DNA from: Candidatus Latescibacterota bacterium
Lineage (GTDB): Bacteria > Latescibacterota > CBDEFO01
Length of the DNA stretch: 64,000 bases
Assembly: GCA_965248755.1 (NCBI GenBank)
Contig: OZ252149.1
Location: 2,066,295 to 2,130,294 of the forward strand
Reading direction: 5' to 3'
The notes below the pieces were generated by a model. It did no database searches. It saw only the letters and a program-made list of their open reading frames with translations, and was not told where the DNA came from. A program made the position numbers and the translations under genes. Position 1 is the stretch's first letter. Each line of letters begins with the position of its first letter. This document shows, piece by piece, positions 2,661 to 63,145 of this stretch.

Positions 2661-2732
2661 AATGTAGGGGCGATCCCCGATAGAGTCAATCGGGGACTCA
2701 ATCGGGGAGGGTTCACCCCGAAGCAATCTCCG
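2661..2732. repeat. composite dispersed repeat copy (GTAGGGGCGA module, CCCCGATAGAGTCAATCGGGG hairpin, CCCCGAAGCAATCTC module)
   Basis: Hairpin at 2685..2705. The flanking modules recur at more than 15 other sites in the window. Confidence 0.7.
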
Positions 2733-2758: not shown

Positions 2759-4351
2759 CTACTTGTCAGTCACCGGAAGTTTGACAATGAAGGTAGTGCC
2801 GGCCCCGACCTGGCTCTGGACGTCAATGGCCCCGCCATGTTTTTTTACCACTTCAAGGGACCCTGGAAGCCCGATGCCCATGCCGCCCTTCTTGTCGGTG
2901 GTGAAGAAATTGAATATATCCCGAATCTTCTCCTCCGGTATTCCGATCCCTGTGTCGCTGAACTTGATCTCTGCGCTCCGGCTATTATGCCCCTTGATGT
3001 CGATGGACAAAGAACCGCCGTCTTCCATCGCCTGATAGGCGTTTAGAACGATATTCGAGAAGACATCTACCATCTGTTCGGGATCGACTTCTATCGGCGG
3101 AACGTCTTTGCTGTACTCTTTGTGAACCTGTATATTCTCGGGCCTGGGAATTCTATCCAGAGAGGCGTCTATGAGGGTGGGGATACTGTAAGGCTCTTTT
3201 CGCGGCTCTTCGGGAACGGCTCTCCTCATCCTGCTTATGTCCTTTTTGACCAGCCCCAGATGTCTGTCTATTCCGTCCAGCGCCCTTTCGAGCCTGAGAT
3301 CGGACGTGCCCCCTTTGAGTGTCCTTTCTCTAATTTCGGCAGCAAACGTATCTATAGGATTTAGGAGGTTGCTGATATTGTGGGCTATCCTCCAGGTGCT
3401 CCTTCCTACCACCGCCAGCCTTTCTGACTCCTTCAGTTCATCCTGACGCTTCTTAATCTCAGAGAGCATGTATTTAAAGGCTCTGGAAAGCCCTCCTATC
3501 TCGTCGTTTCTATCTATGCCTGAAATATCTGCGTCCAATGCTCCTCCCGACGGAGTCGAGGCTCGACCTATTTTCTGGACATCTTCTGTGAGCCGCTTTA
3601 TGGGCTTTACCGTCTGTCTTATAAGAACATAGAAAAATGTAAGAGACAGCAGCGCGGCGGATAGCCCCACGATGCTCAGAAAAGGTACAGTAGGCATCAC
3701 AGGGCGGTAGTAGCCTATCTTGAGGACAAAGTCCCCGCGGTCCGATTCTATCCTCACTCCCACATCCTGGACCATCTCTCCCCCGTAGCGTATCTCATCG
3801 GAGATGATACCTTTGCCGTTATAGAGAAGCTCTTCTACGAGGTCGTAATCTCTGGGATCAGTGGAATACCCCTGTTCCTCCTCAACGTCTGTGGAAAGGT
3901 GGAACTTATGATCGTCACCTATTATCTTGATGTAGGCTATAAAGTCGCTCTTGTATTGGCTCTTGAGGAATTGGAATACAGCGTTTGCGGTGTAGTTATC
4001 TACGAGGGAACTTACAATATTGGCGACTTCTTTGGTTATGGGTTCGTATCCCTTTTCGAACATCTGGGCTTCATATTGTCGTCTTTCGAGCATCGTGGAT
4101 ATGAGGGAAAATAGAGCGACTACCAGTATGGATATTACGAATATAACCGTAGTCTTAAAGAGTATACCGACACGGAATCTGCGCTCGATCCCTTTGACTT
4201 CGACCTCACTCACTGATCTATCGCCTCCACCCGAAAGACAGTAGTCACTGGAAAGTGCATATCCGCCTATGTATAAAAATGTAACAATATTAAGGCCAAA
4301 AAGCAACCTTATTGTGACCCCCCTAAACATAGTAGACAGTAAACAGGGCAC
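2759..4351 (-). CDS. sensor histidine kinase (TM, HAMP, HisKA, HATPase_c)
   Basis: 530 aa with TM segments, an H-box (AHNISNLLNPI) and a G-box (GGMGIGLPGSLEVVKKHGGAIDVQSQVGAGTTFIVKLP). It is adjacent to the NtrC-type regulator and is the likely cognate pair. Confidence 0.85.
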   Translation of the reverse strand: MPCLLSTMFRGVTIRLLFGLNIVTFLYIGGYALSSDYCLSGGGDRSVSEVEVKGIERRFRVGILFKTTVIFVISILVVALFSLISTMLERRQYEAQMFEKGYEPITKEVANIVSSLVDNYTANAVFQFLKSQYKSDFIAYIKIIGDDHKFHLSTDVEEEQGYSTDPRDYDLVEELLYNGKGIISDEIRYGGEMVQDVGVRIESDRGDFVLKIGYYRPVMPTVPFLSIVGLSAALLSLTFFYVLIRQTVKPIKRLTEDVQKIGRASTPSGGALDADISGIDRNDEIGGLSRAFKYMLSEIKKRQDELKESERLAVVGRSTWRIAHNISNLLNPIDTFAAEIRERTLKGGTSDLRLERALDGIDRHLGLVKKDISRMRRAVPEEPRKEPYSIPTLIDASLDRIPRPENIQVHKEYSKDVPPIEVDPEQMVDVFSNIVLNAYQAMEDGGSLSIDIKGHNSRSAEIKFSDTGIGIPEEKIRDIFNFFTTDKKGGMGIGLPGSLEVVKKHGGAIDVQSQVGAGTTFIVKLPVTDK

Positions 4352-4662
4352 CGCCTCCCTTCCCTTGAGATTGCTTCGCTATCGCTCGCAATGACAATTC
4401 ATTTTGCTAAGGTCATTGCGCGGAGGCCTACCCCCGAATGATTGATCCCCGATAGATTCAATTGGGGAGGGTTCGCCCCGAAGCGATCCCCGACCCCGGA
4501 AAGGTTGAATCGGGGGCAATCGGGGACGGATCTCGCAGTCAGTACACCAAAGACACAGCCTCCTATCCCATTTTCCTGTGTTTCAGTCAAAAAATCTTTC
4601 CCCATAAAGGATATAGTATATATTGATAGGCACAACTGAGCAGTAGGAAAGATAAACCATCT

Positions 4663-5530
4663 ATGGGAACTGAGACTTACACAAAGGTACCAAACGATAT
4701 TATGGAAGGTATTTTGTGCAAGGGGTTGCTTTCAAAAAGAGAATCGCAAATCTTCTGTGTCATACTCAGAGAACGGTATAACGGCCAGTGGACAGTACGC
4801 CCTCTACGCGTTCAAAAGATCGCCGATTTTACTCGACTTGGTAGAGCAAATGCTTCCACTACTATAGGAGAGATGCTGAAGAAAAATATCATAAGACAAA
4901 GAGACGGAAAGAAAGGAAGATACTATCAAATTAATACAGATCCCCCAACTTGGATCACTAAAGGTTGTCAAAACAACAGCAAAAAGTTATTGAAACGATA
5001 ACTAAAAGTTGTCAAAACGACAACAATTGTTCCTCTAATCCATTGTTCCGCAAGGCGATACCGAGTCCTAAGGAAGCACCTAAAGGAAGTATCTAAGAAA
5101 GTATATGATGAAGATGGTAGTGCGGTCACTAAGGCACCAGACGAGACAGCATCGAAGTCTCTACAGACTTCAGCTTCAGCATCATCTTTCATAGAAATTC
5201 TATCGCAGAACATACCCGACTTCCCCGAAGACGGAAGGATACTTGAAGTAGCTAAGCGATGCGTCGAAGAGGACCCAGATGTAGATGAACGCCAGGTTGC
5301 CCAGAACTTCGTAAACTGGAAGGATCGCCCTACACTTACTCCCAAAAACATCGAATCCATCATTCAAAATCAATTTAGAACTGCCAGGGGAAAGGGCTAT
5401 TATCGCAAAGAGAGGAAGATAAACCGTCACCCTGGACAGATCCGAAAGACAAAGCAGTATATAGAAGAACTGAGAGAAACAGACGCCGAGTTAGAGTCAC
5501 AAACCCCTGAGGAGAGACAGGCAAAATGAG
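4663..5530 (+). pseudogene. phage replisome organizer / replication initiator-like protein (N-terminal HTH domain), interrupted by an in-frame TAA at 4999..5001
   Basis: 4663..5001 encodes LSKRESQIFCVILRERYNGQW..RPLRVQKIADFTRLGRANASTTIGEM, resembling the Phage_rep_org_N winged-helix domain. The same reading frame continues without a start codon from 5002 to 5530 (DEDGSAVTKAPDE...EERQAK). The two parts together are about 289 aa. Confidence 0.45.
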
Positions 5531-5547
5531 CAGGCATTAAGCAAATA

Positions 5548-5733
5548 ATGGAGGAAAGCTCAAGAAAGGCTAAAGAGTTTAGAAAAAGGAAGAAGTCCGC
5601 TAACCGAGACTTCAAGAGCGGCAGAATAAGCAGAGAGGCCTACGATAGCATCTTGAAGCAGATTCGCGATGAGGCGCAAGATGCCTGGGGACAAGGCGAA
5701 TCAGCAGACCGAATACAGGGAGAGGAAGTTTAA
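5548..5733 (+). CDS. small basic hypothetical protein (61 aa)
   Basis: ORF inside the TIR-bounded element. Lys/Arg-rich with coiled-coil character. No recognisable family. Confidence 0.3.
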   Translation: MEESSRKAKEFRKRKKSANRDFKSGRISREAYDSILKQIRDEAQDAWGQGESADRIQGEEV

Positions 5734-5894
5734 GGGAGATTGTTTGAGGCTGTACCTCCTCCCAATTACCCAACAACAAGCAATGTCTTTACGAGTACAG
5801 CCCGGTGTCATTGCGAGCGAAGCGAAGCAATCTCAAGTGAGGGGAGGCGGTACCCTGTCTACCCCCGATAGATTCCATCGGAGACTACTGTCTA

Positions 5895-6482
5895 CTATTT
5901 AATCACCTTGATCTCTTTGGAGGACTCAAATGGAGAAGCATGATTAGGCTCCTCCACAGCTCTTAACGTAACGCTCTCCTCCAGGGCGATGGTGAAGGTG
6001 ACCTTAGGCTTGGTGTGGATCGGGTGCAGATAGGCTCGTGCAAGTTCAATTTCGCCTTTGTATATGGCTATCCAGCGGACATGGTGTTGAAAGAGCGTGG
6101 GATGGAGAGCTCCCGCTCCGACCGTCACGGTCACATCGAACCATTCACCCGCTTTAACTGTGTCCGGGGCATCTATCCTGGGGACGTGCTTGGGGTCGTC
6201 CTCCACCTTGACTCTATTGATCTTTTTGAAATTAGTCACGACACTTTCATCTGTTACCTGATCCGCCATCTTTTCATCGGCAAAGACTGACGGGACGACT
6301 GTGCCGAAGATAATCCACAGGGCAACGGCAGAAAATGCAGAGGCCAATCCATAGATAAATCTTACCTTGACATTTGAGCACTTTTTAGCTATATCTAACC
6401 TTATATTCACCTTACGCCTCCTGATGTTTAGGTTTTGATCCAAGATGCCAATTACGAGGCGATATGCCAATTGCGAGACCAA
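5895..6482 (-). CDS. membrane-anchored desulfoferrodoxin / superoxide-reductase-like domain protein (lacks the Cys ligand)
   Basis: KHVPRIDAPDTVKAGEWFDVTVTVGAGALHPTLFQHHVRWIAIY resembles the SOR ferrous-iron domain (KHVPVI...HP...H...WIE). No Cys follows. There is an N-terminal TM helix. Confidence 0.45.
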   Translation of the reverse strand: MVSQLAYRLVIGILDQNLNIRRRKVNIRLDIAKKCSNVKVRFIYGLASAFSAVALWIIFGTVVPSVFADEKMADQVTDESVVTNFKKINRVKVEDDPKHVPRIDAPDTVKAGEWFDVTVTVGAGALHPTLFQHHVRWIAIYKGEIELARAYLHPIHTKPKVTFTIALEESVTLRAVEEPNHASPFESSKEIKVIK

Positions 6483-6884: not shown

Positions 6885-7673
6885 TTGATGAGAAAGATTA
6901 AATATAGAAACAGAAAGGGGGGAGGCGGTGCCCTGTCTCCCGTCTACTGTCTACTGTCTACTGCCTTCCTGGTCTTCCTCTCTATTTCGGACCTTTCAGA
7001 GGCATCAGCAGAGGTAGGGACGATTGGGGGAAGAGTGACCTTTGAAGGAGAGATTCCCAAGACGAAGGTGTTCAGGGTGACGATAGATAAATATACCTGT
7101 GGAGCTGAAAAGGCATCTCAGGAGCTGATAATCTCGCCGGATAGAGGGATAAAAAACGCTCTTCTATGGATAGAAGGCACCCCCGCTAAAAGGCAGCCGT
7201 CTGAATCGGAAAAAGATGGATTCATCACAGAATCTTCATACCGACTCGATCAGCAAAATTGCGAATATGTCCCGCACGTTCTGGTCGTCCCTCCAGAGGT
7301 CGCACTGAAGATCACGAACAGCGATCCCATAGCTCACAACGTGCACACTATCTCAGATGAGAATCCGTCTTTCAACAAGTTCCAGCAGAAGAACAAGCTG
7401 TCCGTGGTCTTCCAATACCCTGAGATAATTCAGGTGGAATGCAACATGCACAGTTGGATGAAGGCGTGGATCGTTGTGGCTGATAGTACATATTATGCGC
7501 TGACGAATAAAGACGGCTCGTTCAAAATAGAGAACATCCCGCCGGGGACCTATAAATTGAGGCTGTGGCACGAGTCCTTAGGGGAAAACGTAAAGGAAGT
7601 CATAGTTAAATTGGCAGAAGATTTGAAAGTGGACTTCAAACTCAGCAAGAGGAGTATGAATGAATCTGAATGA
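6885..7673 (+). CDS. secreted cupredoxin-like protein (putative type-1 copper site)
   Basis: His residues (HNVH), CNMHSWM (CxxHxxM) and a beta-rich sequence. The N-terminus overlaps a GGAGGCGGTGCCCTGTCTCC(CGTCTACTGTCTACTGTCTAC) repeat module, so the real start is probably downstream of 6885. Confidence 0.45.
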   Translation: MMRKIKYRNRKGGGGALSPVYCLLSTAFLVFLSISDLSEASAEVGTIGGRVTFEGEIPKTKVFRVTIDKYTCGAEKASQELIISPDRGIKNALLWIEGTPAKRQPSESEKDGFITESSYRLDQQNCEYVPHVLVVPPEVALKITNSDPIAHNVHTISDENPSFNKFQQKNKLSVVFQYPEIIQVECNMHSWMKAWIVVADSTYYALTNKDGSFKIENIPPGTYKLRLWHESLGENVKEVIVKLAEDLKVDFKLSKRSMNESE

Positions 7674-8406: not shown

Positions 8407-8407
8407 A

Positions 8408-8690
8408 GATTGTAGGGGCGGGATGAATCAATCTCGTAGTCAGTAAAAAGGTAAAGGCAACGCAAGCCACACTGGTCTGCCGCTGCAGATGAATGTTGGG
8501 GCGAAGTCCGCTCGCCCTTTGGGCGCACCCACCGTGTTCGCCAGATTTATCCGTATTCTCAGGGAAGACACACAGCTCTTCTCCTGTAGATGCACCGTTC
8601 TATGTAGGGGCGAGGTTCGCTCGCCCCCGATTCTGTCAACGAGTGCTTGAGATTGCTTCGGGGTGAACCTCCTCGCAATGACTAAGGGTA
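8408..8690. repeat. composite repeat cluster (two GTAGGGGCGRG...CGCTCGCCC modules plus a GAGATTGCTTCGGGGTGAACCTCCTCGCAATGAC module)
   Basis: Same modules as the other dispersed-repeat copies. Intergenic, between the SDR gene and RecD2. Confidence 0.6.
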
Positions 8691-8736
8691 AAATAAGGAA
8701 TATCAGCAGAACTTTTTATTCAGGAAGAGCCAAAAG

Positions 8737-10968
8737 TTGTTAGAGCATTTAGAAGGAACAATAGAGCGGATAACGTACCAGAACGAAGAGACAGGGTACG
8801 TGATCGCCAAGCTTGAGCCCAAAGGTGATCCCCAACTAAAGCGCAGGCGCAGTGCCCCATCGCAGAGATTCTGGGGGCAGAACAAGAGCGCTCTAAATCT
8901 GGTCACGATAGTCGGCGAAATGGCCTCAGTAAATCCGGGCGAGAACGTGACCGTAGAAGGCTACTGGACCACTCACCCCGAGTACGGCCACCAGTTCAAA
9001 ATTGAATCTTACAAAATAGTCCATCCTTCGACCGTAGAGGGTTTAAGGAAATATTTGGGCTCAGGGCTCATCAAGGGAATAGGACCTGTTACCGCCAGTA
9101 GAATCGTGGATCATTTCGGTCTGGAAACTTTAGAAGTTATCGAAAACGATCCCGAACGTCTATCAGAGGCTCCCGGTGTAGGTGAAAAAAGAGTCAAGAT
9201 GATAGGAAAGGCATGGCAGGAGCAGAGGAAAGTAAAGGATGTGATGCTGTTCCTTCAATCTCACGACGTCAGCACAGGATATGCGACCAAGATTTACAAA
9301 CAGTACGGAGACAATGCCATAAACGTAGTAAAGAATAATCCGTATCAACTGGAAAGAGATATATGGGGCATAGGTTTCCTGACGGCCGACAGGATAGCCA
9401 GGAGCATAGGGATAGAGAACGACTCCATCGAGAGAATAAGGGCAGGGATAAGGTATGCGCTCAATAAGCTCTCCGAGGAGGGACACATCTATGCGCCGTC
9501 CTTGGAACTTGTGGAGAAGGCTGTGGAGTTTCTGGAGGTGACGGCGGAGCTCGTATCTGAGGCTTTAGGGGTGATGGAGCAGGAAAAAGAGATTGTAGTT
9601 GAGGGTGGGAGAGTCTTTTTGCCCCCTTTATATTACGCTGAGGTGGGAATTGCTAATAACCTAAAGCGCCTAATGCTCTCCCCGCTCTTCGGGAGGAATT
9701 TCGACGCCCAGAAAGAGATAGAACACATAGAAAAAAGGAGCAGCATAAGATTCTCCAAAAGGCAAACAGTTGCGATTCAAACCTCCGTTACGGATAAGGT
9801 GATGGTCCTAACAGGGGGGCCAGGGACAGGAAAGACGACTATCACCAGGGGGATAATAGATGTCTTTGAATCCAACGGGCTGAGAGTTATGCTGTGCGCT
9901 CCTACAGGGAGAGCGGCCAAAAGGCTCTCTGAGGCCACCGGAAGGAGAGCACAAACCGTTCACAGACTCCTGGGATTCAAGCCGGGTGAAGGTGCTTTCC
10001 AAAGGGACAGGGAAAACCCCCTTGATCTGGATGTCCTTATTGTTGATGAGATGTCAATGGTGGATGCGCCCTTGATGAACAGCCTCGTGCGGGCACTGCC
10101 TCACCAGGCCAGGCTTATCCTTGTGGGAGACGCCGATCAACTGCCCTCGGTAGGGGCTGGAAATGTGCTGAGAGACATAATAGATTCAGGAGAAATTCCA
10201 ATTGTCGAGCTATATGAGATATTCCGCCAGGAAAGAGGAAGTTTGATCGTTACGAACGCTCATAAGATAAATAGCGGAGAATTTCCGTATATCAATAACA
10301 AAGATTCCAGGGATTTCTTCTTCTTAGAGGAGGAGGACACGGAGTCCATCCCGGGCATAATCGAGGATCTCTGCAAAAGGAGGATCCCAAAGAGGACGGG
10401 CCTTGACCCTATAGACGACATCCAGATCATCTGTCCTATGTACAAGGGAGAGACAGGTGTCACAAATCTAAACAGCAGGCTTCAGGAGGCTCTAAATCCG
10501 ATTCCAGAGATGCCAAAGAAGCCTGTTGATACCCTGAGAATCAGAAGAGGAAACACGGAGTACAGGGTCAAAGATAAGGTGATGCAGATAAGGAATAACT
10601 ACAGCAAGATGGTATTCAACGGAGACATAGGGGCGGTAAAGACGATAAATTTGGAGGATCAGAGCCTCAGTGTCATGTTCGACAGACTCGTGGAGTACGA
10701 CTTCCGAGAATTAGATGAGTTAATATTAGCGTACGCCGTCTCTGTGCACAAATATCAGGGCAGTGAGTGCAGGGCAATGGTTATGCCTTTGACGACCCAG
10801 CACTATATGATGCTTCAGAGGAATCTGCTGTACACAGCGGTAACAAGAGCCAGAGACATGGTAGTGCTTGTAGGAACGAAGAAGGCCCTGTGGATAGCCC
10901 TCAAGAACGATAAAGTGGCAGAAAGATACACGTCGCTGGACGAAAGGTTGCGCGCTTTAGGATGTTAA
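8737..10968 (+). CDS. recD2: ATP-dependent RecD-like DNA helicase (RecD2, SF1B)
   Basis: 743 aa. HhH region (GIGPVTASRIV), Walker A (GGPGTGKTT), Walker B (LIVDEMSMVD), and a C-terminal UvrD_C_2-like segment (AVSVHKYQGSE...TAVTRAR). Confidence 0.9.
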   Translation: MLEHLEGTIERITYQNEETGYVIAKLEPKGDPQLKRRRSAPSQRFWGQNKSALNLVTIVGEMASVNPGENVTVEGYWTTHPEYGHQFKIESYKIVHPSTVEGLRKYLGSGLIKGIGPVTASRIVDHFGLETLEVIENDPERLSEAPGVGEKRVKMIGKAWQEQRKVKDVMLFLQSHDVSTGYATKIYKQYGDNAINVVKNNPYQLERDIWGIGFLTADRIARSIGIENDSIERIRAGIRYALNKLSEEGHIYAPSLELVEKAVEFLEVTAELVSEALGVMEQEKEIVVEGGRVFLPPLYYAEVGIANNLKRLMLSPLFGRNFDAQKEIEHIEKRSSIRFSKRQTVAIQTSVTDKVMVLTGGPGTGKTTITRGIIDVFESNGLRVMLCAPTGRAAKRLSEATGRRAQTVHRLLGFKPGEGAFQRDRENPLDLDVLIVDEMSMVDAPLMNSLVRALPHQARLILVGDADQLPSVGAGNVLRDIIDSGEIPIVELYEIFRQERGSLIVTNAHKINSGEFPYINNKDSRDFFFLEEEDTESIPGIIEDLCKRRIPKRTGLDPIDDIQIICPMYKGETGVTNLNSRLQEALNPIPEMPKKPVDTLRIRRGNTEYRVKDKVMQIRNNYSKMVFNGDIGAVKTINLEDQSLSVMFDRLVEYDFRELDELILAYAVSVHKYQGSECRAMVMPLTTQHYMMLQRNLLYTAVTRARDMVVLVGTKKALWIALKNDKVAERYTSLDERLRALGC

Positions 10969-10990
10969 GAGAACTGAGAGGGGACAGAAC

Positions 10991-11932
10991 ATGAACCAGC
11001 AAGAATGGACAGAATGCAGAATACAGAAGCTGATAGATAACCAAGTCACAGAAAGCATAAATCTTGAATATAAAGGCAGTGGTGCTTTAAGTAAATCGGA
11101 TGGGAAAAAGAAAGAGATAAGCAAGGACGTTTCTGCATTTGCTAATTCAGCGGGAGGAACCATCATCTATGGAGTGAAGGAATATGATGAGGAAGACAAG
11201 AAGCATCTTCCTGAAAAGATCGATGGCGGAGTAGATCCCTCAGAACTCTCAAGAGAGTGGCTTGAACAAGTAATCAACAGCAACATCCAGCCCGTAATTG
11301 ACGGCCTGCTCATCCACCAAGTCGAGCTTGTAAAGCTTGTAAAGACCAATCCGGCTAATGTCGCCTACGTAGTAGAGATACCACAGAGCGAGAGAGCACC
11401 TCATCAAGCTTCGGACAAGAAATATTACAAACGGTACAACTTTCAATCTGTCCCGATGGAGGACTATGAAGTAAAGGATGTGATGAACCGGGTCAAAGTA
11501 CCTGTAATTGAACCTATATTCAGTCATCAGGCAGTTGAGAGAACATCAGACGCTCACACCTACGACTTACAGATATTCCTTAAGAACAAGGGAAAGATAA
11601 TGGTGAGAAACTTCTATCTACAAGTCACGTTTCCGAGTTCTCTAATCAAATATATAAGTAATCTTGATTATAAATCATTACTTTTAGATGATCGTTATGA
11701 TGAGCGTTATAGAGAGATCAGCATTAACAGTTATCGAGTCCTGTTTCCAGAAGAGAGATTCCACGTAACCGAGGGATTGCGGTATATACGGTATGAAGTG
11801 AACACAGAGAGTCATCACGAAATCTGTAAATATCCTGAACTTATGAAGTTAAAATGGGCACTGTATGCTGATAACATGCCACCGAAACGAGGGGAGATTC
11901 CTCTGAGTGATAGAAGGTTAAACGGGTTTTGA
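10991..11932 (+). CDS. AlbA_2 (Schlafen-like putative DNA-binding) domain protein
   Basis: N-terminus ESINLEYKGSG...DVSAFANSAGGTIIYGV matches the AlbA_2 (PF04326) signature (E..LEFK ... AfaNt.GG.l..Gv). Starts 23 bp after the recD2 stop, on the same strand. Confidence 0.6.
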   Translation: MNQQEWTECRIQKLIDNQVTESINLEYKGSGALSKSDGKKKEISKDVSAFANSAGGTIIYGVKEYDEEDKKHLPEKIDGGVDPSELSREWLEQVINSNIQPVIDGLLIHQVELVKLVKTNPANVAYVVEIPQSERAPHQASDKKYYKRYNFQSVPMEDYEVKDVMNRVKVPVIEPIFSHQAVERTSDAHTYDLQIFLKNKGKIMVRNFYLQVTFPSSLIKYISNLDYKSLLLDDRYDERYREISINSYRVLFPEERFHVTEGLRYIRYEVNTESHHEICKYPELMKLKWALYADNMPPKRGEIPLSDRRLNGF

Positions 11933-12043
11933 GAGATAGATAACAGAGAAGATGACAAAAGACCAAAGTGGTATTATTGAGGATTATCCTTCCCTGTCCC
12001 TTAAATACGATTATGGATATTATTCAGTTGAAAGACTAATAAG

Positions 12044-13609: not shown

Positions 13610-13689
13610 AATTGTCATGCAACTACGAGTGCCAACCCGCGGATGAACCAGCCGCGGTAATGGAGAACCAGTAACACAAGTAGACAGCG

Positions 13690-13870
13690 TACAGAAAGAA
13701 AGGATCTCAGTGAGATTGCTTCGGGGTGAAAGCCCTCGCAATAACTCCGGTAAAGTAACGGTCATTGTGAATCGACTACTACGGCCATCGCTAGTAGCTC
13801 CTCTGTGTCAGTGCGACCCCGTCCGATTGAATCTATCGGGGTTAGATCGGGGGAAGGAAACGATCTCACT
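13690..13870. repeat. composite repeat copy (GAGATTGCTTCGGGGTGAAAGCCCTCGCAATAAC module plus CCCCGATTGAATCTATCGGGG hairpin in reverse orientation)
   Basis: Both motifs match the family consensus. Intergenic. Confidence 0.65.
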
Positions 13871-14255
13871 TACGCTGTTTATCCCTGCATTAGTGTCCGA
13901 AATATTTTGATCTGATACTTAGAATTCAGTATTAGAAGAACCCAGTTGTTGCGGAATAATACAAATAGAATGTCAAAACGTGACCCAGATCACAAACTTT
14001 GATTTTAGATATGCGTATCGTTCTGTTGATGTTTCTTATGGGATCATGTATTTTTATTTATTTGTTCCCCCCTTCCAGCAGCGAAATCTCCCAAATTAAA
14101 GCGGGAGGTTAATTGATGGTCGGATAGATTAACTATGTACAAATGTAGCTGCAGAAGGAAGGAGATTAAAGCGGATCAGCAACAACTACTAATGGTGCAC
14201 GAACTTTCTTATTTTTTTTGTTTCTACAGATATTTCCACAGTAAAGGAGAGCTTT

Positions 14256-15842
14256 ATGATGTTAAACTTACGAAAGTCTGTTCTAGCGCTGGCGGCTATT
14301 ACTTTTTTCTTCGGAATCATTACGAGTGCTCACGCCCAACTGACCAACCCGAGCTTCGAGACAGGTGACCTAAAGGGTTGGCACTCCTCTGGATCTGTCA
14401 CAGTCGTTAGGTTCGGTGGTGGTAATTACCCAAAAGACGGCAAGTACTTTGCCTTTCTCACGGCCAGTGTGTACGGTAGCACCATTTCGCAGACATTCAC
14501 TGCAAATGCGGGAGACAAAATCTCAGGCTGGGCCTTCTTCAACGCGCAAAGCGGGTCGGCGCAGGTGCAGATCACAGAGAGCAGGTCCAAGGGTGTCTTT
14601 AAAACCTCAATTACGAGCCCTAAGTGGACCAGTTGGGAGTACAGGTTTAAGAAGAAGGGAAAGTACACCATAAAGGCGCTTCTCTTGCTCAAGAAGGGAG
14701 TCAAAGTCAAGAAGGGCAGCGGCATGGGGTTGGACGGCCTTGTACTTGACAGCAGGAACCGCCCGCCGACGGCAGATGCTGGTCCTGACCAAAAGGTAGA
14801 ATGCGTGGGTCCCGCAGGAACAAAGGTAACCCTGGACGGATCGGGATCAAGAGATCCTGATAAGAATTATCTTAGGTACACTTGGAACGGATCCTTCGGG
14901 ACGGTCACCGGCGCGAGTCCGACGGTAGTCCTCTCCCACGACATCCACACCATCACGCTTACGGTGGATGACGGCAAGGGCGGGAAGGATTCAGACAAGG
15001 TGGTCATCACGATTGTGGACACCAAGCCTCCTGAAGTCACCGCCGCGTTGGATCCCATCCAAGGGGAAGATGATGATGGGGACGAGGACGACAAGAACGA
15101 TTACGCCGTTGTGTATAGTGCTACCGATGCCTGCGATCCCAATCTGAGCCTTGAGGCAGTGATTGAGTTGCCGGATCTGGCGAATCCGAAGGTCAAATTT
15201 AAAGTGAAGGACCGCAACAAAATCAAGATTGATCTGAAGAAGAACAAGGTGACGCTGGAAGGCCCTGATCCTGAGGGACTCTGGGTACAGATTCAGAGTG
15301 CCGGCGGGATTGAGGTCGCCAATGGGCAGGAGCTGTCTATAAAGGTCAAGACCGGCTATAATAAGTATGAATACAAGTTCGATAAGGACGGGAATCTGGT
15401 GAAGGTCAAAGCTCCGGAGGCGACGTTACTGTGCACGGCCACCGATGCGTCTGGCAATGTGGGAACGGCTACGGCCAGTCTGCCTCTGGTGGTGGCAGAG
15501 GGTGATGATGGCGACGATGATGATATTCCTGGAAAGGGAAAAGGGAAGCCGTCTCTATTACCTGAGGGCTATGCCTTACAGCAGAACCATCCGAATCCGT
15601 TCAACCCTGAGACGATGATTACGTATTCACTCCCGGAGGAAACACACATCCGACTGGTGGTCTACAACCAGATGGGTCAGATTGTACGAACGTTGGTGGA
15701 TGGACACAGATCAGCAGGAAGCTACTCTATAGTCTGGGATGGCAGGGATAGTAACGGAGAGAGCCTCGCCAGCGGAATCTATCTGTATCGAATAGAGGCG
15801 GATGGATTTGTACAGACGAGGAAAATGAGTTTAATGAGGTAG
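14256..15842 (+). CDS. secreted PKD-domain protein with a T9SS type A C-terminal sorting domain
   Basis: Signal peptide, a PKD-like segment (ADAGPDQKVECVGPAGTKVTLDGSGSRDPD..YTW), and a C-terminus LQQNHPNPFNPETMITYSLPEETHIRLVVYNQMGQIVRTLVDG..SGIYLYRIEADGFVQTRKMSLMR. The last stretch is the classic T9SS type A CTD. Confidence 0.8.
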   Translation: MMLNLRKSVLALAAITFFFGIITSAHAQLTNPSFETGDLKGWHSSGSVTVVRFGGGNYPKDGKYFAFLTASVYGSTISQTFTANAGDKISGWAFFNAQSGSAQVQITESRSKGVFKTSITSPKWTSWEYRFKKKGKYTIKALLLLKKGVKVKKGSGMGLDGLVLDSRNRPPTADAGPDQKVECVGPAGTKVTLDGSGSRDPDKNYLRYTWNGSFGTVTGASPTVVLSHDIHTITLTVDDGKGGKDSDKVVITIVDTKPPEVTAALDPIQGEDDDGDEDDKNDYAVVYSATDACDPNLSLEAVIELPDLANPKVKFKVKDRNKIKIDLKKNKVTLEGPDPEGLWVQIQSAGGIEVANGQELSIKVKTGYNKYEYKFDKDGNLVKVKAPEATLLCTATDASGNVGTATASLPLVVAEGDDGDDDDIPGKGKGKPSLLPEGYALQQNHPNPFNPETMITYSLPEETHIRLVVYNQMGQIVRTLVDGHRSAGSYSIVWDGRDSNGESLASGIYLYRIEADGFVQTRKMSLMR

Positions 15843-34008: not shown

Positions 34009-35484
34009 ATGATTTTCCGCAGTCTTACTATCGCCATAGTTCCAGTCTTAGCATTTTTCTCGTGTGTTTCCGCGCAAAAAGTTAAACTCGACCTGTATGA
34101 AATGAGCCTCTGTCCCCACTGTGCAGAGGCGGAAAGGGTTATCCATCGGGTTATACAAGACCTTTCGGGATACATCAACTTTGACCTGTACTACGTGGCA
34201 GATTTAAGAGAAGACGGAACGATAGAGAGCCTCAGGGGAGAAGAGGAAGTAAACGAGGACCTTCGCCGCATAGCCATTTGGGAACTCTATGCCGAAAAAT
34301 TCTGGGACTATACACAGCTGAGAAATGTCACTGTTCCAGAGGCTCCCTGGCAGGAATCGGCTCTGAAAGTTGAGATCGCTCCTAAACAAATTGAAGCCTA
34401 CATCGAAAGTGGTAAAGCCGAAGAGAGCTTGCGATCGCACATATCGAGGACCGACAGTCTCAAAATCTTCGATTCTCCGACCATCTATATAGACGGAAAA
34501 CCCTACGAAGATTCTATAGAACGGTTCGCTCTCCTCAAGGCCATCTGCGCAAGATTAGATTATGAACCGCTAGCCTGCAAATCCGTCCCCACGTGTTCCC
34601 GAGACGCGGACTGCTTAAAAGAGGGCTACATCGGGACCTGCCTAAAGCCGGGGACTTTGGAATCCAGATGCATTTACGAGAAGACCAGACCTATCCCTCT
34701 GACGATCGTCTATCACAAAGATGCGCACTTCACCAACGAAGCCCAGATCGTCCAGTCCACAAAGGTACTCTTCCCTGGGGTACGGATCAGGAGAGTTTCC
34801 CACAACTCCTACGAGGGCAAACTACTCATCATACAACACAACCTAAGGAAGCTTCCCGCCTACATATTCGGAGAGGGACTGCTTGAGGACAAGAACTTCC
34901 CTCAGATCAAGAGTAGGATCTATGAGAGCCGGGGTGTTTATCTTATCTTCCCTGAAGCCGTCGGAGCGTCTGTTCTGATCGAAAGAGAAAGGACTCCCGG
35001 GCGGGCTGACATCTTCGTTTCGAGCGTCTCCTCAAGAGCGTTAGGAGTCATCAGAGATACAATGGCACACATGGAGGGCTATGAAGGACCCCAAAACGTC
35101 TACATCCACTACGTAACCCGAAAGAATAGAGATGGCGAACTTGTCGCCGGCGGCGGCAGATACGAAGTTGAAGAATCGATAAGACAGCTTGTAGTCAACA
35201 AGTTCTATGCTGAAAAATATCCGGAATATATAAGGGCCAAGATTCGGTCCGGGGGAAGCTCGTACTGGGAGGAGACTGTAGAAGCCGTAGGCCTGGATCC
35301 TGATACGATAAAGGCAATAGCAAGAAGCGAAACCGGGCTATCGCTCCTTAAAGAGGACGCCCGGCTATCTGAAGAACTCGGCATAACTGGCGAAATAGTC
35401 TTTCTGATAGACAACCAGGAACTGGTCACCATCGCTGAAAAAGAACAACTCCAAACTATCTTAAACTACATTTTTCCAAGGTAA
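34009..35484 (+). CDS. secreted DsbA-family (thioredoxin-fold) protein, two DsbA-like domains
   Basis: Signal peptide. CPHC active-site motif in domain 1. C-terminal ELGITGEIVFLIDNQ resembles the DsbA C-terminal motif. Confidence 0.5.
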   Translation: MIFRSLTIAIVPVLAFFSCVSAQKVKLDLYEMSLCPHCAEAERVIHRVIQDLSGYINFDLYYVADLREDGTIESLRGEEEVNEDLRRIAIWELYAEKFWDYTQLRNVTVPEAPWQESALKVEIAPKQIEAYIESGKAEESLRSHISRTDSLKIFDSPTIYIDGKPYEDSIERFALLKAICARLDYEPLACKSVPTCSRDADCLKEGYIGTCLKPGTLESRCIYEKTRPIPLTIVYHKDAHFTNEAQIVQSTKVLFPGVRIRRVSHNSYEGKLLIIQHNLRKLPAYIFGEGLLEDKNFPQIKSRIYESRGVYLIFPEAVGASVLIERERTPGRADIFVSSVSSRALGVIRDTMAHMEGYEGPQNVYIHYVTRKNRDGELVAGGGRYEVEESIRQLVVNKFYAEKYPEYIRAKIRSGGSSYWEETVEAVGLDPDTIKAIARSETGLSLLKEDARLSEELGITGEIVFLIDNQELVTIAEKEQLQTILNYIFPR

Positions 35485-35584
35485 TAGACAGCGTACAGAG
35501 CAGGTCTGCTTCCTTGCGAAAAACAACGACGGTAAATACGGATGGGAGCAGGTGCCGCTTTCTACTGACTACGAGCTTGCTTGG

Positions 35585-35775
35585 CTGTCCCCGACCCCCA
35601 ATTGAATCTAATGGGGGCTCAATCGGAGATCGCAGTGACGTTGCGTGGCTTATACCTTAAATCATGGAGCGCTCTTTCTTTTTGTCATTGCGAGGTGCCA
35701 AACCCTGAAGCAATCTCACCTGTCCACTGAATAGACAAGAATCTCTGTTTTACTGTCTACTGATTTTTCAAGTTC
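35585..35775. repeat. composite repeat copy (hairpin variant CCCCCAATTGAATCTAATGGGGG, a GTCATTGCGAGG...CTGAAGCAATCTCACC module, and TACTGTCTACTG)
   Basis: Matches to the family modules. Intergenic. Confidence 0.6.
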
Positions 35776-50474: not shown

Positions 50475-52616
50475 GTGATAAAAATGTCTTGGTGTGCAAG
50501 AATGGGTAGTATTTTATGTAAGCTGGCAGGGTTGATTCTGCTTGCTTTGATGGTCACCGCCATCTTTTTAGATGACGCCACCTGTGCGACTATCTACAGG
50601 ATCGGAAAGCCCTTTTCGGATGCAGAAAGGACCAGTCTCGAGGGGATAGGGATTGAGGTCCAGCAGTTCAGCTGGGAAGTTTATGAGTCGGTGAAGAACC
50701 TGGATGTGGACTCTCTGAAGGCGGCACATGGCGGCTCAATTGAACCCAAGTTTATCAGGCCGGGTGAGAGCATAGCCGCAACGGCTCTGGACAGAGGAGG
50801 ATGGATAGCCGAAGGTACCCAAGACGATGAGAGGCTAAGCTTCAAAGAGGGATATGAAATCGAAGGCAACGTTGCGAATAACATGATAGACGGGGATCCG
50901 ACCACGGCTTTTGTGTGGCCTAGGCCGGCGCCCCCGGGTTGGAAAAGAAACGGCGGAAGATGTCATAAAGCGCCTCACCGGATAGTTATTAACTTAGGCG
51001 GACAATTTGTCGTCGACAAAGTAAGATTCTACCCTCGTGAAGGAATATCCCCTGATGGTGAGGAATATAAGACTCACTTCATAGAGGACTACCAATTGGG
51101 TACCAGTCAAGGCCGCAGGCCGCAGGATTTCGTCGAGACCTACTTGTGTCGAGGATCAGCTTTCATCCCGAGCTTCCGACAGTTTGCCCAGTACACTCAC
51201 CCAGGAACCGATCTTGACCAATCTGGAGGTCCATCTGGCAAAAGTGAAGACCATGATGATGTTGAAAATATATTTACTGAAGTTATAATACCGCTTGACC
51301 CTCCGGAGAAAATCTCTTATGTCGCGTTGTTGATCTGGCTCCCAATTGTGAAGACGATAGAGATCGCCGAGTTTGAGGTCTTTGGGCCGGAGGGCTTTAT
51401 AGAAGAAGCCGCTTATATAGCTGACGTAATTGAGTTGGACGACATCGCCAGTTTCGGCGAGCTCACCTGGTCAGGGAGTCGTGATCCCAGGGCGGAGGCC
51501 AATATCCGAACCAGGAGCGGGACAGATCCTCAGCCGATTGTTTACTGGATACTCAAAGGTCAGCTGCGAACGCAGGTAGTTTTGCCTTCGACCAATGAGG
51601 AAGGAGAAGAGCTCAGCTTAGAGGAGTACAGAAGTGCTTTCTACAAACTCCCGGAAAATGTTTGGGCTGACTCGACTTACGATACGGAAAACTGGAGCTT
51701 CTGGTCTGCTCCTTACAAGTTTGAAAGTCCGGGAGCACCTATCGTCTCTCCTGGTCCCCGCAAATTCCTTCAGATCGGCGTGGATTTTGCCTCCGAAGTT
51801 AACGATGGCAGCCGGATCGAGTATTTACAGTTTAAGGCCTCTGTGCCTCCTGCGGCTCGAGAGATAGTAGGTGAGATCTTCCCTACAGAAGTCGAGATAG
51901 GGAAGGTAACACACAAGTTCAGCTATTTTGTCAAGGCAACGATGACAGCTGTGGATAAAGGATTCGACACCTTGGAGATCACCACACCTTATGGGGTTAG
52001 TTCGGTCGATTCGCTAAGTGTAGATGGAATCAATCAGGACGGTTTCACCTGGGTGAAAAAGGCCGACGATTCTGGCTTTGAGGTCACATTACCCAGGAAG
52101 TTGGATACAGGAGACAGCGGAGTCATAGTTGAAGTGGTCTTCCAAGCTCCTGTTTTGAGGGAGCGCGGGACCTTTTTTGACGGCAGTGTGTTCGACAGCG
52201 CACAGCCTCACGAAGTTCATCAGAAGATCAAGGCTGGCAACGTGGCAGATGAGATCGAAAGCGATGTCCTTACGGTGATAACGTCTTTGGCCGAATCGAT
52301 ATTGTCCTCACCAGAGGTCTCTCCAAATCCCTTTACACCGAATGGCGACGGTGTCAATGATGTACTGAACCTATCTTATACCATTTTGAGGCTGACTGCC
52401 CCTGTTCCTGTCTCAATCGATATATACGATCTTTCCGGTGTCTTTATAAAGACAGTCTATTCTGGGAACGACTCCGTAGGACAATACCCCCGGCAATGGG
52501 ATGGTAGAGACAGCGAGGATAATCTTGTTCCACCCGGGATATATGTGTATCGCGTATCGGTAGAGGCTCAGGAAGGGGAGGAGACGGCGACAGGGACTGT
52601 CTCTGTCGCCTATTAA
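50475..52616 (+). CDS. secreted protein with a discoidin/F5-8-type-C-like domain and a T9SS type B (CHU_C) C-terminal sorting domain
   Basis: Signal anchor. The C-terminus NPFTPNGDGVNDVLNLSY...IDIYDLSGVFIKTVY...WDGRD...PPGIYVYRVSV matches the type B CTD. Confidence 0.7.
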   Translation: MIKMSWCARMGSILCKLAGLILLALMVTAIFLDDATCATIYRIGKPFSDAERTSLEGIGIEVQQFSWEVYESVKNLDVDSLKAAHGGSIEPKFIRPGESIAATALDRGGWIAEGTQDDERLSFKEGYEIEGNVANNMIDGDPTTAFVWPRPAPPGWKRNGGRCHKAPHRIVINLGGQFVVDKVRFYPREGISPDGEEYKTHFIEDYQLGTSQGRRPQDFVETYLCRGSAFIPSFRQFAQYTHPGTDLDQSGGPSGKSEDHDDVENIFTEVIIPLDPPEKISYVALLIWLPIVKTIEIAEFEVFGPEGFIEEAAYIADVIELDDIASFGELTWSGSRDPRAEANIRTRSGTDPQPIVYWILKGQLRTQVVLPSTNEEGEELSLEEYRSAFYKLPENVWADSTYDTENWSFWSAPYKFESPGAPIVSPGPRKFLQIGVDFASEVNDGSRIEYLQFKASVPPAAREIVGEIFPTEVEIGKVTHKFSYFVKATMTAVDKGFDTLEITTPYGVSSVDSLSVDGINQDGFTWVKKADDSGFEVTLPRKLDTGDSGVIVEVVFQAPVLRERGTFFDGSVFDSAQPHEVHQKIKAGNVADEIESDVLTVITSLAESILSSPEVSPNPFTPNGDGVNDVLNLSYTILRLTAPVPVSIDIYDLSGVFIKTVYSGNDSVGQYPRQWDGRDSEDNLVPPGIYVYRVSVEAQEGEETATGTVSVAY

Positions 52617-52815
52617 TTACACTATTACCGGTGGTCAAGCAAGAATTCCCCCGTTCAAAGTGTTAAGGATTCGTTATATCAGCAGAAATTAGATAGATAG
52701 CAGTATCCAAATCAGGTGTATGTTAGTGAAAGATTGCATAAAGGATTCATGTCAGCCAGCTCTTTATGAAGTTCTGTCAATCAATAAAGGGCAAACTAAT
52801 TAACATTCTTAGTGG

Positions 52816-54948
52816 GTGATGACAATGTCCTGGTTTACAAGAAATAGCAGTGTTCTATCAAAGCTGACAGGATTGATTCTTCTTGCTTTGGTAGTCATCA
52901 GTATCTTTTCAGATGAAGCCACCTGTGCGACTATCTACAGGATCGGAAGGCCGTTTTCACAAGCAGAGAGAGACAGTCTCGAGAGGATAGGGATTGAGGT
53001 CCAGCAGTTCAGCTGGGAAGTTTATGAGTCGGTGCAGAGTCTCGATGTGGACTCTCTGAAAGCGGCGGATGGCGGCTCAATTGAACCCAAGTTTATCAGG
53101 GAGGGTGAGAGCATAGCCGCAACGGCTCTGGACAGAGGAGGATGGATAGCCGAAGGTACCCAATCCGATGAGACGCTAGGCACCCTTGAGAGATATAAAA
53201 TCCAAGGCAACATTGGGAACAACATGATAGATGGGGATCCGACCACGGCTTTTGTGTGGCCTTGGCCGCCGCCCCCGGGGGAGCAAAGAGGCGGCGCAAG
53301 ATGTCATAATGCGCCTCACCGGATAGTTATTTACTTAGGCGGACTATTTGTCGTCGATAAAGTAAGATTCTACACTCGTGAAGGAATATCCCCTGAGGGT
53401 GAGGAATATGAGACTCACTTCATAGAGGACTATGAATTGGGTACCAGCCTTGGCCGCAGGCCGCAGGATTTCTTCGAGAGCTACTTGTGTCGAGGATCAG
53501 CTTACATCCCGAGCTTCCGACAGTTTGCCAAGTACACTCTCTCACGCACTAATACGCATGAGCCGATTGAAAATATATTTTCTGAAGTTATAATACCGCT
53601 TGATCCTCCGGAGAAAATCTCTTATGTCGCGTTGTTGATCTATACCCCAAATTTGAAGACGATAGAGATCGCCGAGTTTGAGGTCTTAGGCTTACGAGAG
53701 AGCTTTATAGAAGAATCCGCTTATATAGCTGACATAATTGAGTTGGACGACATCGCCAGTTTCGGCGAGATCACCTGGTCGGGGAGTCGTGATCCCAGGG
53801 CGGAGGCTAATATCCGAACCAGGAGCGGGACAGATCCTCAGCCGATTGTTTACTCGATACTCAAAGGTCCGCTGCTAACGCAGGTAGTTTTGCCTTCGAC
53901 CGATCAGAAAGGAGAAGAGCTCAGCTTAGAGGAGTACAGAAGTGACTTCTACAAACTCCCGGATAATGTTCGGGCTGACTCGACTTACGATACGGAAAAC
54001 TGGAGCTTCTGGTCTGCTCCTTACAAGTTTGAAAGTCCGGGAGCACCTATCGTCTCTCCTGGTCCCCGCAAATTCTTTCAGATCGGCGTGGATTTTGCCT
54101 CCGAAGTTAACGATGGCAGCCGGATCGAGTATTTACAGTTTAAGGCCTCTGTGCCTCCTGCGGCGCGAGAGATAGTTGGTGAGATCTTCCCTGCGGAAGT
54201 CGAGATAGGGAAGGTAACACACAAGTTCAGCTATTTTGTCAAGGCAACGATGACAGCTGTGGATAAAGGATTCGACAGTGTTGAGATCACCACACCTTAT
54301 AGGTTTAGTTCGGTGGATTCGCTAAGAGTAGATGGCATCAATCAGGACGGTTTCGACTTGAAGGTAAAGGAGGACAGCTTAGGCTTTGAGGTCACATTAC
54401 CTACGGATCCGGAAACTGGACTTCCTAGGAAGTTGGATACAGGAGATAGCGGAGTCATAGTTGAAGTGGTCTTCCAAGCTCCTGTTTTGAGGGAGCGCGG
54501 GACCTTTTTTGACGGCAGGGTGTTCGTCAAGGCAGAGCCTCACGAAGTTCGTCAGAGGATCAAGCCTGGCAACGTTGCAGATGAGATCGAAAGCGATGTC
54601 CTTACCGTGATAACGTCTTTGGCCGAATCGATATTGTCCTCTCCCCAGGTCTCTCCAAATCCCTTTACACCCAATGGCGATGGGGTCAATGACCTATTGA
54701 ACATATCTTATGCTATTCTGAGGTTGACTGCCCCTGTTCCTGTCTCAATCGATATATACGATCTTTCCGGTGACTTTATAAAGACAGTCTATTCTGGGAA
54801 CGACTCCGTAGGACAATATATCCGGCATTGGGATGGGGGAGACAATAAGGATAATCTTGTTCCACCCGGGATATATGTGTATCGCGTATCGGTAGAGGCT
54901 CAGGAAGGGGAGGAGACGGCGACAGGGACTATCTCTGTTGTCTATTAA
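52816..54948 (+). CDS. tandem paralog of 50475..52616 (roughly 85% identical by eye), T9SS type B CTD
   Basis: Collinear with the upstream gene, including conserved 3-prime flanking sequence. The tandem duplication unit is about 2.34 kb. Confidence 0.7.
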   Translation: MMTMSWFTRNSSVLSKLTGLILLALVVISIFSDEATCATIYRIGRPFSQAERDSLERIGIEVQQFSWEVYESVQSLDVDSLKAADGGSIEPKFIREGESIAATALDRGGWIAEGTQSDETLGTLERYKIQGNIGNNMIDGDPTTAFVWPWPPPPGEQRGGARCHNAPHRIVIYLGGLFVVDKVRFYTREGISPEGEEYETHFIEDYELGTSLGRRPQDFFESYLCRGSAYIPSFRQFAKYTLSRTNTHEPIENIFSEVIIPLDPPEKISYVALLIYTPNLKTIEIAEFEVLGLRESFIEESAYIADIIELDDIASFGEITWSGSRDPRAEANIRTRSGTDPQPIVYSILKGPLLTQVVLPSTDQKGEELSLEEYRSDFYKLPDNVRADSTYDTENWSFWSAPYKFESPGAPIVSPGPRKFFQIGVDFASEVNDGSRIEYLQFKASVPPAAREIVGEIFPAEVEIGKVTHKFSYFVKATMTAVDKGFDSVEITTPYRFSSVDSLRVDGINQDGFDLKVKEDSLGFEVTLPTDPETGLPRKLDTGDSGVIVEVVFQAPVLRERGTFFDGRVFVKAEPHEVRQRIKPGNVADEIESDVLTVITSLAESILSSPQVSPNPFTPNGDGVNDLLNISYAILRLTAPVPVSIDIYDLSGDFIKTVYSGNDSVGQYIRHWDGGDNKDNLVPPGIYVYRVSVEAQEGEETATGTISVVY

Positions 54949-55230
54949 TTGCACTATTACCGGTGGTCACGCAAAACTTACCCCCTTCAAAGTGTTAAGG
55001 ATTCGTTATATCCACAGAAATTGGATAGATAGCAGTATCCAAATCAGGTGTATGTTAGTCTAATTTTGCATAAACGGTTTATGGGAACTAACTCTTATGG
55101 GAGAAAATTACTCTATAACGGATCGTAGTTCATCGTATACTCCCCAACGGATGAGGAGGTGGAGCAAAGTATCGGGGATTAGTGGTTATTCCACAACAGT
55201 TAATATCAATCCTAAAGGGGAATTCTGAAA

Positions 55231-62960: not shown

Positions 62961-63145
62961 AGGTGTGCCTGTCCCCGAATGACTTTATCGGGGATTGCTT
63001 CCGCCGGGAAGCGTCGATTGGCGGCCGATCTCTGCTATGGTCTCAGTTGTTGGTACTGGGCTTGTCCAAAGTCCTGTCCCCGAATGACTTTATCGGGGGA
63101 TGGATTTTCAAATGTAACCGGCATTCACACAGGAAGAAAGAGGAG

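Follow-up and report, generated by a model that had tools for sequence, protein, structure and literature searches.

A probable relic of a lambda-O-type replication module lies between lineage-specific repeats in a Latescibacterota chromosome

Is a gene that is framed by a long inverted repeat the cargo of a mobile element, or does it lie between repeats of the host? The question is raised by a 1.47-kb unit (4367-5833) in the stretch of 64,000 nucleotides from a Candidatus Latescibacterota bacterium that was analysed here (the window; coordinates refer to it unless a contig is named). A gene resembling replication initiators, which we call rep, is found there between inverted copies of a 27-bp module. 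A preliminary description, made from the sequence alone, left two readings: a small mobile or satellite-like element that uses the repeats as its ends, or a phage remnant trapped between two MITE copies. Our results make it likely that the locus is a relic replication module between lineage-specific host repeats, and that these repeat copies are not the functional termini of an element carrying rep.

The first open reading frame of the gene (ORF1; 4663-5001, plus strand, 112 aa) encodes a predicted lambda-O-type N-terminal winged-helix DNA-binding domain. It matched the Pfam family Phage_rep_O (PF04492) over residues 5-92 with 32.3 bits (E=1.4e-7), the gathering score being 28.7, and it matched four PHROG replication-initiator families, PHROG 277, 678 and 2365 being described as 'replication initiation O-like'. 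The TIGR01610 profile (phage_O_Nterm) was matched over its full length, with a score (37.7 bits) that stays under the cut-off of 45.5. Annotated phage 'replication protein O' genes were matched weakly and non-significantly by tblastn, with only 26-32% identity over 92 residues (6-97; E 0.06-0.9). The homology to replication initiators that had been proposed for this ORF is detectable, with the Pfam match above its gathering score. The profile matched is that of the lambda O family and not the one of the replisome organizers that had been proposed: Phage_rep_org_N was absent among the Pfam matches of ORF1 at E<=1. Solved structures gave no match to ORF1 at E<=10, and a structure prediction from a two-sequence alignment reached a mean pLDDT of only 38.6. 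The ATG is preceded, at a distance of 11 nt, by an AGGAAAG motif. The upstream region (4564-4662, plus strand), which is common to the sister lineage described below and is 45 nt longer there, yielded no sigma-70-like promoter.

The inverted repeat around the gene is real and more extensive than had been claimed. The 28-mer at 4367-4394 was found exactly as quoted in the preliminary description, and its inverted partner at 5806-5833 differs solely by one extra base (A 4381). A repeat search returned arms of 42 nt with 90% identity (4339-4380/5821-5862) and of 15 nt with 100% identity (4382-4396/5806-5820), which combine into a contiguous inverted repeat of ~58 nt that is 93% identical and reaches ~70 nt with its outer part. 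This outer part is ATAGTAGACAGTA at 4329-4341, pairing over an additional 13 nt with 5886-5898; the right arm is broken between 5862 and 5886 by a copy of a 22-nt hairpin (5863-5884). The number of such inverted-repeat patterns expected by chance is ~0, and the two arms are mutual best matches within the 64 kb. Hairpin copies had been placed just inside each end. Two of them (4447-4468 and 4495-4516) do lie inside the left end, whereas the right one, at 5863-5884, lies outside the 27-bp module.

To what extent do the gene and its repeats belong together? A search with the C-terminal part of rep returned one protein with 89% identity on contig L001, which is syntenic with the window (response regulator, kinase, rep, desulfoferrodoxin), and the kinase protein cluster led to three further contigs, L002, L005 and L006. 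These four assemblies form one clade, the sister lineage, so that with the window five versions of the locus could be compared. L001 and L002 are ~99% identical over the 12 kb that they share; between the clade and the window, identity amounts to 95-97% in the flanking DNA and to 93% across the rep region. Its contigs are low-coverage long-read assemblies, and indels of 1-2 nt in them may therefore be errors. The gene occupies the same site, between the histidine-kinase and desulfoferrodoxin genes, in all five assemblies, and an open ORF1 is found in four of them, the window and three from the sister clade. The 204-nt mosaic repeat block at 4360-4563 (plus strand), which holds the 28-nt module and the two left hairpin copies, is wholly missing from all four sister assemblies, the junction being bracketed by GCCTCC. 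On the right, 5710-5843 is replaced in the sister clade by 109 unrelated nucleotides, which represent another repeat family. Both 27-bp modules are thus lacking in the four sister assemblies despite the same gene at the same site. Only the outer arm is common to both sides in both lineages, in the form GTAGACAGGG[C/T]ACCGCCTC; its sequence is also written GTAGACAGGGYACCGCCTC, and on the left it is made up of ATAGTAGACAGTA and ACAGGGCACCGCCTCC (4329-4359, plus strand). The GCCTCC copies at both edges of the left block fit either a target duplication or a deletion, so that the modules may have been gained in the window or lost from the sister clade. The preliminary description had suggested a search for empty-site alleles; none was found among the five assemblies, and the next relatives of the kinase (~50% identity) have other neighbours and are not syntenic. 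With the gene in every assembly and no empty site recovered, its acquisition by insertion is presumed.

The two lineages also differ at other places. Intergenic regions are swapped wholesale between them while the genes are 96-98% identical (window 2683-2709 versus L001 3595-3784, and window 8407-8725 versus L001 9302-9429), which points to a very fast turnover of intergenic repeats. At 10947-12039 the window carries a gene for a 313-aa protein with a Schlafen AlbA_2 domain, and L001 (11651-13521) carries a 250-nt repeat element and an insertion sequence with a DDE_Tnp_1 transposase. Four copies of this insertion sequence lie within 21 kb of the sister lineage, and the window has none at those sites.

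The flanking sequences proved to be assembled from modules that recur throughout the region. The 22-nt hairpin has 21 matches in the 64 kb, with 0 expected, and the GAGATTGCTTCGC core has 14, with 2 expected. These modules are dispersed in intergenic DNA in both orientations and in differing combinations, and they are polymorphic between close strains. The left flank (4329-4563) and the right flank (5710-5898, minus strand) have a common end architecture of GTAGACAG..., then GAGATTGCTTCG..., then CTCGCAATGAC. The same architecture is seen in cargo-free elements of 190-290 nt, located in the window at 13676-13895 and 35478-35772 and in L001 at 11655-11905, one of which is polymorphic between the lineages. 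The right flank is a mosaic element comprising a module at 5713-5742, which recurs at 2724-2753, the 27-nt module (5807-5833), the outer arm (5844-5862), the hairpin (5863-5884) and GTAGACAG (5886-5898). A third copy of the outer module (GGAGGCGGTGCCCTGTCT...CTACTGTCTACTG) lies at 6917-6960 on the minus strand, oriented like the right arm, inside the 5' end of ORF 6885-7673. Since each flank has its own inner end-like module (5713-5742 on the right, a degenerate one on the left), each can be parsed as complete by itself, in a parse that is ambiguous because the repeats are mosaic. Judged by these shared modules, the host's mosaic intergenic repeats are represented by a copy on either side of the gene. 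No Rfam family was found in the region. In being built of short recombined modules (the 22-nt hairpin, GAGATTGC...GCAATGAC and the GTAGACAG heptads), the flanks resemble the BIME/REP sequences of E. coli, the pneumococcal BOX elements and the Correia elements of Neisseria. They differ from these in the sequences of the modules and in a 27/28-nt core that is exactly conserved across many phyla and viral contigs. An enzyme associated with the host's mosaic repeats, either a RAYT or a transposase, was not identified.

The module itself, GAGATTGCTTCGCT(N)TCGCTCGCAATGAC, is far more widespread than the gene. Among representative genomes, at least 120 stretches belonging to many bacterial phyla contain exact copies; the carriers include isolates of Sphingopyxis, Chryseobacterium and Thiomicrospira as well as one Thermoplasmata (archaeal) MAG. 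The module is also present in 41 viral stretches of IMG/VR. The copies in the genomes have unrelated flanks, and about half of the copies listed have a diverged inverted partner 10-40 nt upstream, an arrangement opposite to that of the window pair, which is 1.4 kb apart. A relative of rep was found near the module at none of the 161 loci listed. The 27-nt module alone is not a notable hairpin (z about 0) and has no Rfam family, and our literature search found no paper containing its sequence or its translations. A sequence that stays unchanged between bacterial phyla and viral contigs is a by-product perhaps worth more than the main finding. As ends of a rep element the inverted modules do not stand up, being widespread and never linked to rep at these loci.

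Could the two arms be the halves of one older repeat? In this reading a single palindromic mosaic element was already in place and was split when the rep DNA entered it. The interior of the left flank (4480-4546) is indeed closely like the interior of a cargo-free element (35586-35640), in which the modules follow in the same order (GTAGACAG, GAGATTGC..., ...GCAATCTC, CTGTCTAC), and the arms are 93% identical over 58 nt. However, the right flank starts with an end-like module of its own and the left flank ends with a degenerate one, the sister lineage retains the outer arms only, and, with repeats that are mosaics, the parse on which this reading depends is ambiguous; we consider such a split element unlikely.

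The reading as a non-autonomous mobile or satellite-like element, with the inverted repeat copies as termini and rep as cargo, is a poor fit and seems quite improbable. It draws on the inverted repeat of ~58-70 nt, on the terminal arrangement shared with the cargo-free elements of 190-290 nt (35478-35772; L001 11655-11905, with presence and absence differing between lineages for one) and on the conservation of the outer arm in both lineages. Against it, the sister lineage has the gene but neither of the inner 27-bp arms, the gene lies at one and the same site in every assembly, each flank has an inner end-like module of its own, and neither a transposase, an integrase nor another recombinase is encoded. 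No second copy or relative turned up in protein, viral or JGI searches. Neither the ends at 4367/5833 nor those at 4329/5898 are flanked by a target-site duplication, and GCCTCC brackets the left 204-nt block alone. The comparison with MITEs comes out similarly. The cargo-free copies are MITE-like in their size, their inverted ends and their presence or absence between strains; unlike MITEs, they show no consistent target-site duplication and no parent transposase element was seen. The 1.47-kb unit has terminal inverted repeats but no target-site duplication, and protein, viral and metagenome searches together with the five assemblies revealed neither multiple copies nor polymorphism. To the extent of these data, the 1.5-kb unit carrying rep occurs once and is immobile. 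Because a lone broken gene sits between common host intergenic repeats, we read the locus as an ordinary gene relic and not as a small mobile element. The repeats may still have had a part in the arrival of the gene, since the outer arm is kept on both sides in both lineages, the arms in the window are each other's best match and the cargo-free elements have the same ends.

The state of the gene bears out the description as a relic. ORF1 ends at an in-frame TAA (4999-5001), beyond which the frame was correctly described as open; it runs through 175 sense codons, where 176 had been counted, to a TGA at 5527-5529. The whole of 4663-5733 is a single frame with two internal stops only. A 61-aa ORF (5548-5733), which had been described as following, is present and shares the frame of the upstream part of rep; in the sister lineage, which has TGG in place of the TGA, it is fused to that part. 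On both grounds it is best regarded as the tail of the same ancestral ORF of ~354 aa and not as a gene of its own. A gene on the opposite strand was rejected, as all other frames of the C-terminal block carry 6-16 stops.

The C-terminal part (5002-5733, plus strand) had no family match in Pfam, PHROGs or NCBIfam. An exhaustive search of 1.84 billion representative proteins found no true homologue of it, the only matches being this gene's own tail ORFs (61 and 48 aa) and one repetitive junk protein. Word-indexed protein searches with rep matched only the sister-lineage orthologues, and beyond these no second copy or relative was found in 5.8 billion proteins, the 1.84 billion representatives, viral contigs or JGI contigs. 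Scans of viral contigs with the rep protein and of plasmids by tblastn gave no match, nor did scans of JGI metagenomes with the outer repeat arm and a conserved 31-mer of the gene, and exact look-ups of the ORF1 and 61-aa proteins returned no contig on record. An intact form of a C-terminal domain able to recruit a helicase loader was not found, with TAA 4999 and TGA 5527 in the window and frame shifts in the sister lineage. The neighbours of rep are genes for a histidine kinase, a sigma-54 response regulator, desulfoferrodoxin, an SDR protein and RecD2; a P/DnaC-like loader or other genes of a phage replication module are absent among them.

Directly after the N-domain lies a candidate origin. 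Three 22-nt iteron-like tandem repeats (4957-5024, plus strand; TRF period 22, 3.1 copies) were found here, and the rest of the window has none. Each contains a dyad symmetry (GTTGTC..GACAAC); the array sits at the GC minimum of the region and is adjoined by a second short tandem repeat of 12 nt x 3 (5068-5104, plus strand). The middle repeat is degenerate and reads GATAAC for GACAAC, which creates the TAA at 4999-5001; the frame is one C-to-T change from being open. The window has three copies, L001 and L005 have two, and L002 and L006 have one, so that the two-copy and the one-copy state were each seen in two independent assemblies. Because each iteron loss removes 22 nt, the frame is shifted in the sister strains. 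The position of the repeats places a putative origin inside the rep gene, downstream of the part encoding the N-domain, with the iterons as putative binding sites that ORF1 would be expected to bind.

In lambda the origin likewise consists of iterons inside a gene, with four 19-bp iterons in gene O. The window gene shares with lambda O/ori-lambda (PF04492, TIGR01610) the N-terminal winged-helix origin-binding domain and the short dyad-symmetric tandem iterons, placed in the gene after the N-domain part and at the lowest-GC point. Unlike lambda, it has three (or two, or one) 22-nt repeats and no clear AT-rich unwinding block, its C-terminal part is inactivated and unrelated to anything known, and it lacks a P-like loader gene and a phage context. 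The 'replisome organizer' of the SPP1 G38P type (Phage_rep_org_N) also has an N-terminal DNA-binding domain and origin repeats inside its own gene. The window gene would appear to follow the same logic; the profile that it matches, however, is Phage_rep_O. A lambda-like layout with the origin in the initiator gene would occur here in an uncultured anaerobe, with an iteron number that varies among near-identical strains.

Substitutions between the window and L001 separate the two parts of the gene. The N-domain has 8 synonymous and 5 non-synonymous changes (omega 0.16), whereas the C-terminal part has 6.5 and 33.5 (omega 1.44), with 11, 12 and 6 changes at the three codon positions; the contrast is significant by Fisher's test (p=0.003), its N-domain side resting on 13 substitutions. 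At 4.2% per site, the C-terminal part has diverged as much as synonymous sites have in the genes closest to it, the two for the kinase and the response regulator (dS 0.045-0.05), and the flanking genes have an omega of 0.09-0.36 at a dS of 0.045-0.12. From this pattern the C-terminal two thirds appear to evolve neutrally, as the pseudogene part. ORF1 may still be constrained. The constraint is at most suggested, because there are only 13 substitutions and because non-coding frames of the neighbouring block reach an omega of 0.3-0.6 by chance.

These data weigh heavily against a full-length initiator that still functions, whether by stop-codon read-through, by a -1 frameshift (C AAA AAG at the L001 junction) or by phase variation in iteron number. 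Such recoding would account for one frame with two stops only over 4663-5733, for a second ORF in the -1 frame after AAAAAG in L001 and for iteron numbers that differ among near-identical strains. It is hard to reconcile with the C-terminal omega of ~1.4 and the spread of changes over codon positions, with lesions that differ by lineage, with one-iteron strains that need a different shift, with the TAA in the very version (three iterons) that is in frame, and with the lack of conserved homologues of the C-terminal part; we regard it as very improbable. An IS3/IS1-like insertion sequence with a helix-turn-helix orfA and orfB in the -1 frame, to which the size of 1.4-1.6 kb, the inverted-repeat bounds and the two overlapping ORFs with AAAAAG in L001 might point, is effectively refuted: transposase homology is absent, as neither DDE nor rve nor any other domain of such enzymes was detected with Pfam, NCBIfam or PHROGs, orfA matches Phage_rep_O and not a transposase helix-turn-helix, the second ORF has no homologues whereas transposases are abundant, and the frame relation is not conserved among strains.

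The relic replication module that we favour would span 4564-5733 and consist of a lambda-O-type initiator gene with an iteron origin inside its coding sequence. Its presumed source is a phage-like or plasmid-like element that once entered the chromosome and left the module behind. The relic now appears to be fixed in the species between the histidine-kinase and desulfoferrodoxin genes. Its C-terminal two thirds are probably a pseudogene, with the TAA and the TGA in the window and a frame shifted by the loss of 22-nt iterons in the sister lineage, while the 112-aa N-terminal DNA-binding ORF is still open and possibly still expressed; any continued function of ORF1 is conjectural. The inverted 27-bp copies would belong to the host's mosaic intergenic repeats on each side and be specific to one lineage. 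Of the two readings offered at the outset, the phage remnant between two MITE copies has held up best, with its lambda-O-type N-terminus, the decay of the rest and flanks that are copies of a host repeat. The element with repeat ends has not, given modules that are missing in the sister lineage, a single-copy gene, and the lack of a target-site duplication and of a recombinase.

A further possibility, which we consider doubtful, is that the retained ORF1 and the iterons form a domesticated, stand-alone origin-binding module kept by selection. If so, ORF1 might, for example, serve as a local regulator or bind to the origins of related phages on their entry and block them, and slippage in the number of 22-nt repeats would change both its C-terminal tail and its binding sites. 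The locus may be one where a phage initiator has kept its DNA-binding domain alone. As the relic that we think it is, it makes a cautionary case: a long inverted repeat round a gene can mimic a mobile element, and the comparison of sister strains shows that the arms come and go independently of the gene.

Repeat modules also overlap the ends of coding sequences. The stop codon of the desulfoferrodoxin gene (TAG, 5895-5897) lies inside the right repeat element, in a GTAGACA(G) module, and the TAG stop of the kinase gene (2759-2761) and the stop of the RecD2 gene in L001 are likewise inside such a module. Heptad modules of this kind were found at gene 3' ends at 2756-2764, 5886-5898 and 35482-35495 and in L001 at 11660-11695; tandem GTAGACA(G) copies put TAG in all three frames. 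At 5' coding ends, modules fall in signal-peptide-like regions: GGGGALSPVYCLLSTA in ORF 6885-7673 (module 6917-6960) and, at 63188-63212, LGLSPNDSIGDL after an ATG near 63153. Three copies of a hairpin variant (CTGTCCCCGAATGACTTTATCGGGG) lie on one strand within 62970-63212, at spacings of 105 and 114 nt, where TRF reports no tandem array. REP-like units, consisting of GTAG and a GC-rich palindrome (e.g. GTAGGGGCGAGGTTCGCTCGCCCC), are interleaved with other modules at 2660-2675 and 8407-8640 and in L001 at 11910-11975.

Elsewhere in the window, the ORF at 14256-15842 encodes PKD and FlgD-Ig domains, together with weak, sub-threshold matches to C-terminal sorting domains of type IX secretion (Por_Secre_tail, CHU_C; 22 bits, cut-off 27), a possible hint at a host from the FCB group. 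Three tandem plus-strand ORFs of similar size (713, 710 and 713 aa; 50475-57372) may be paralogues.
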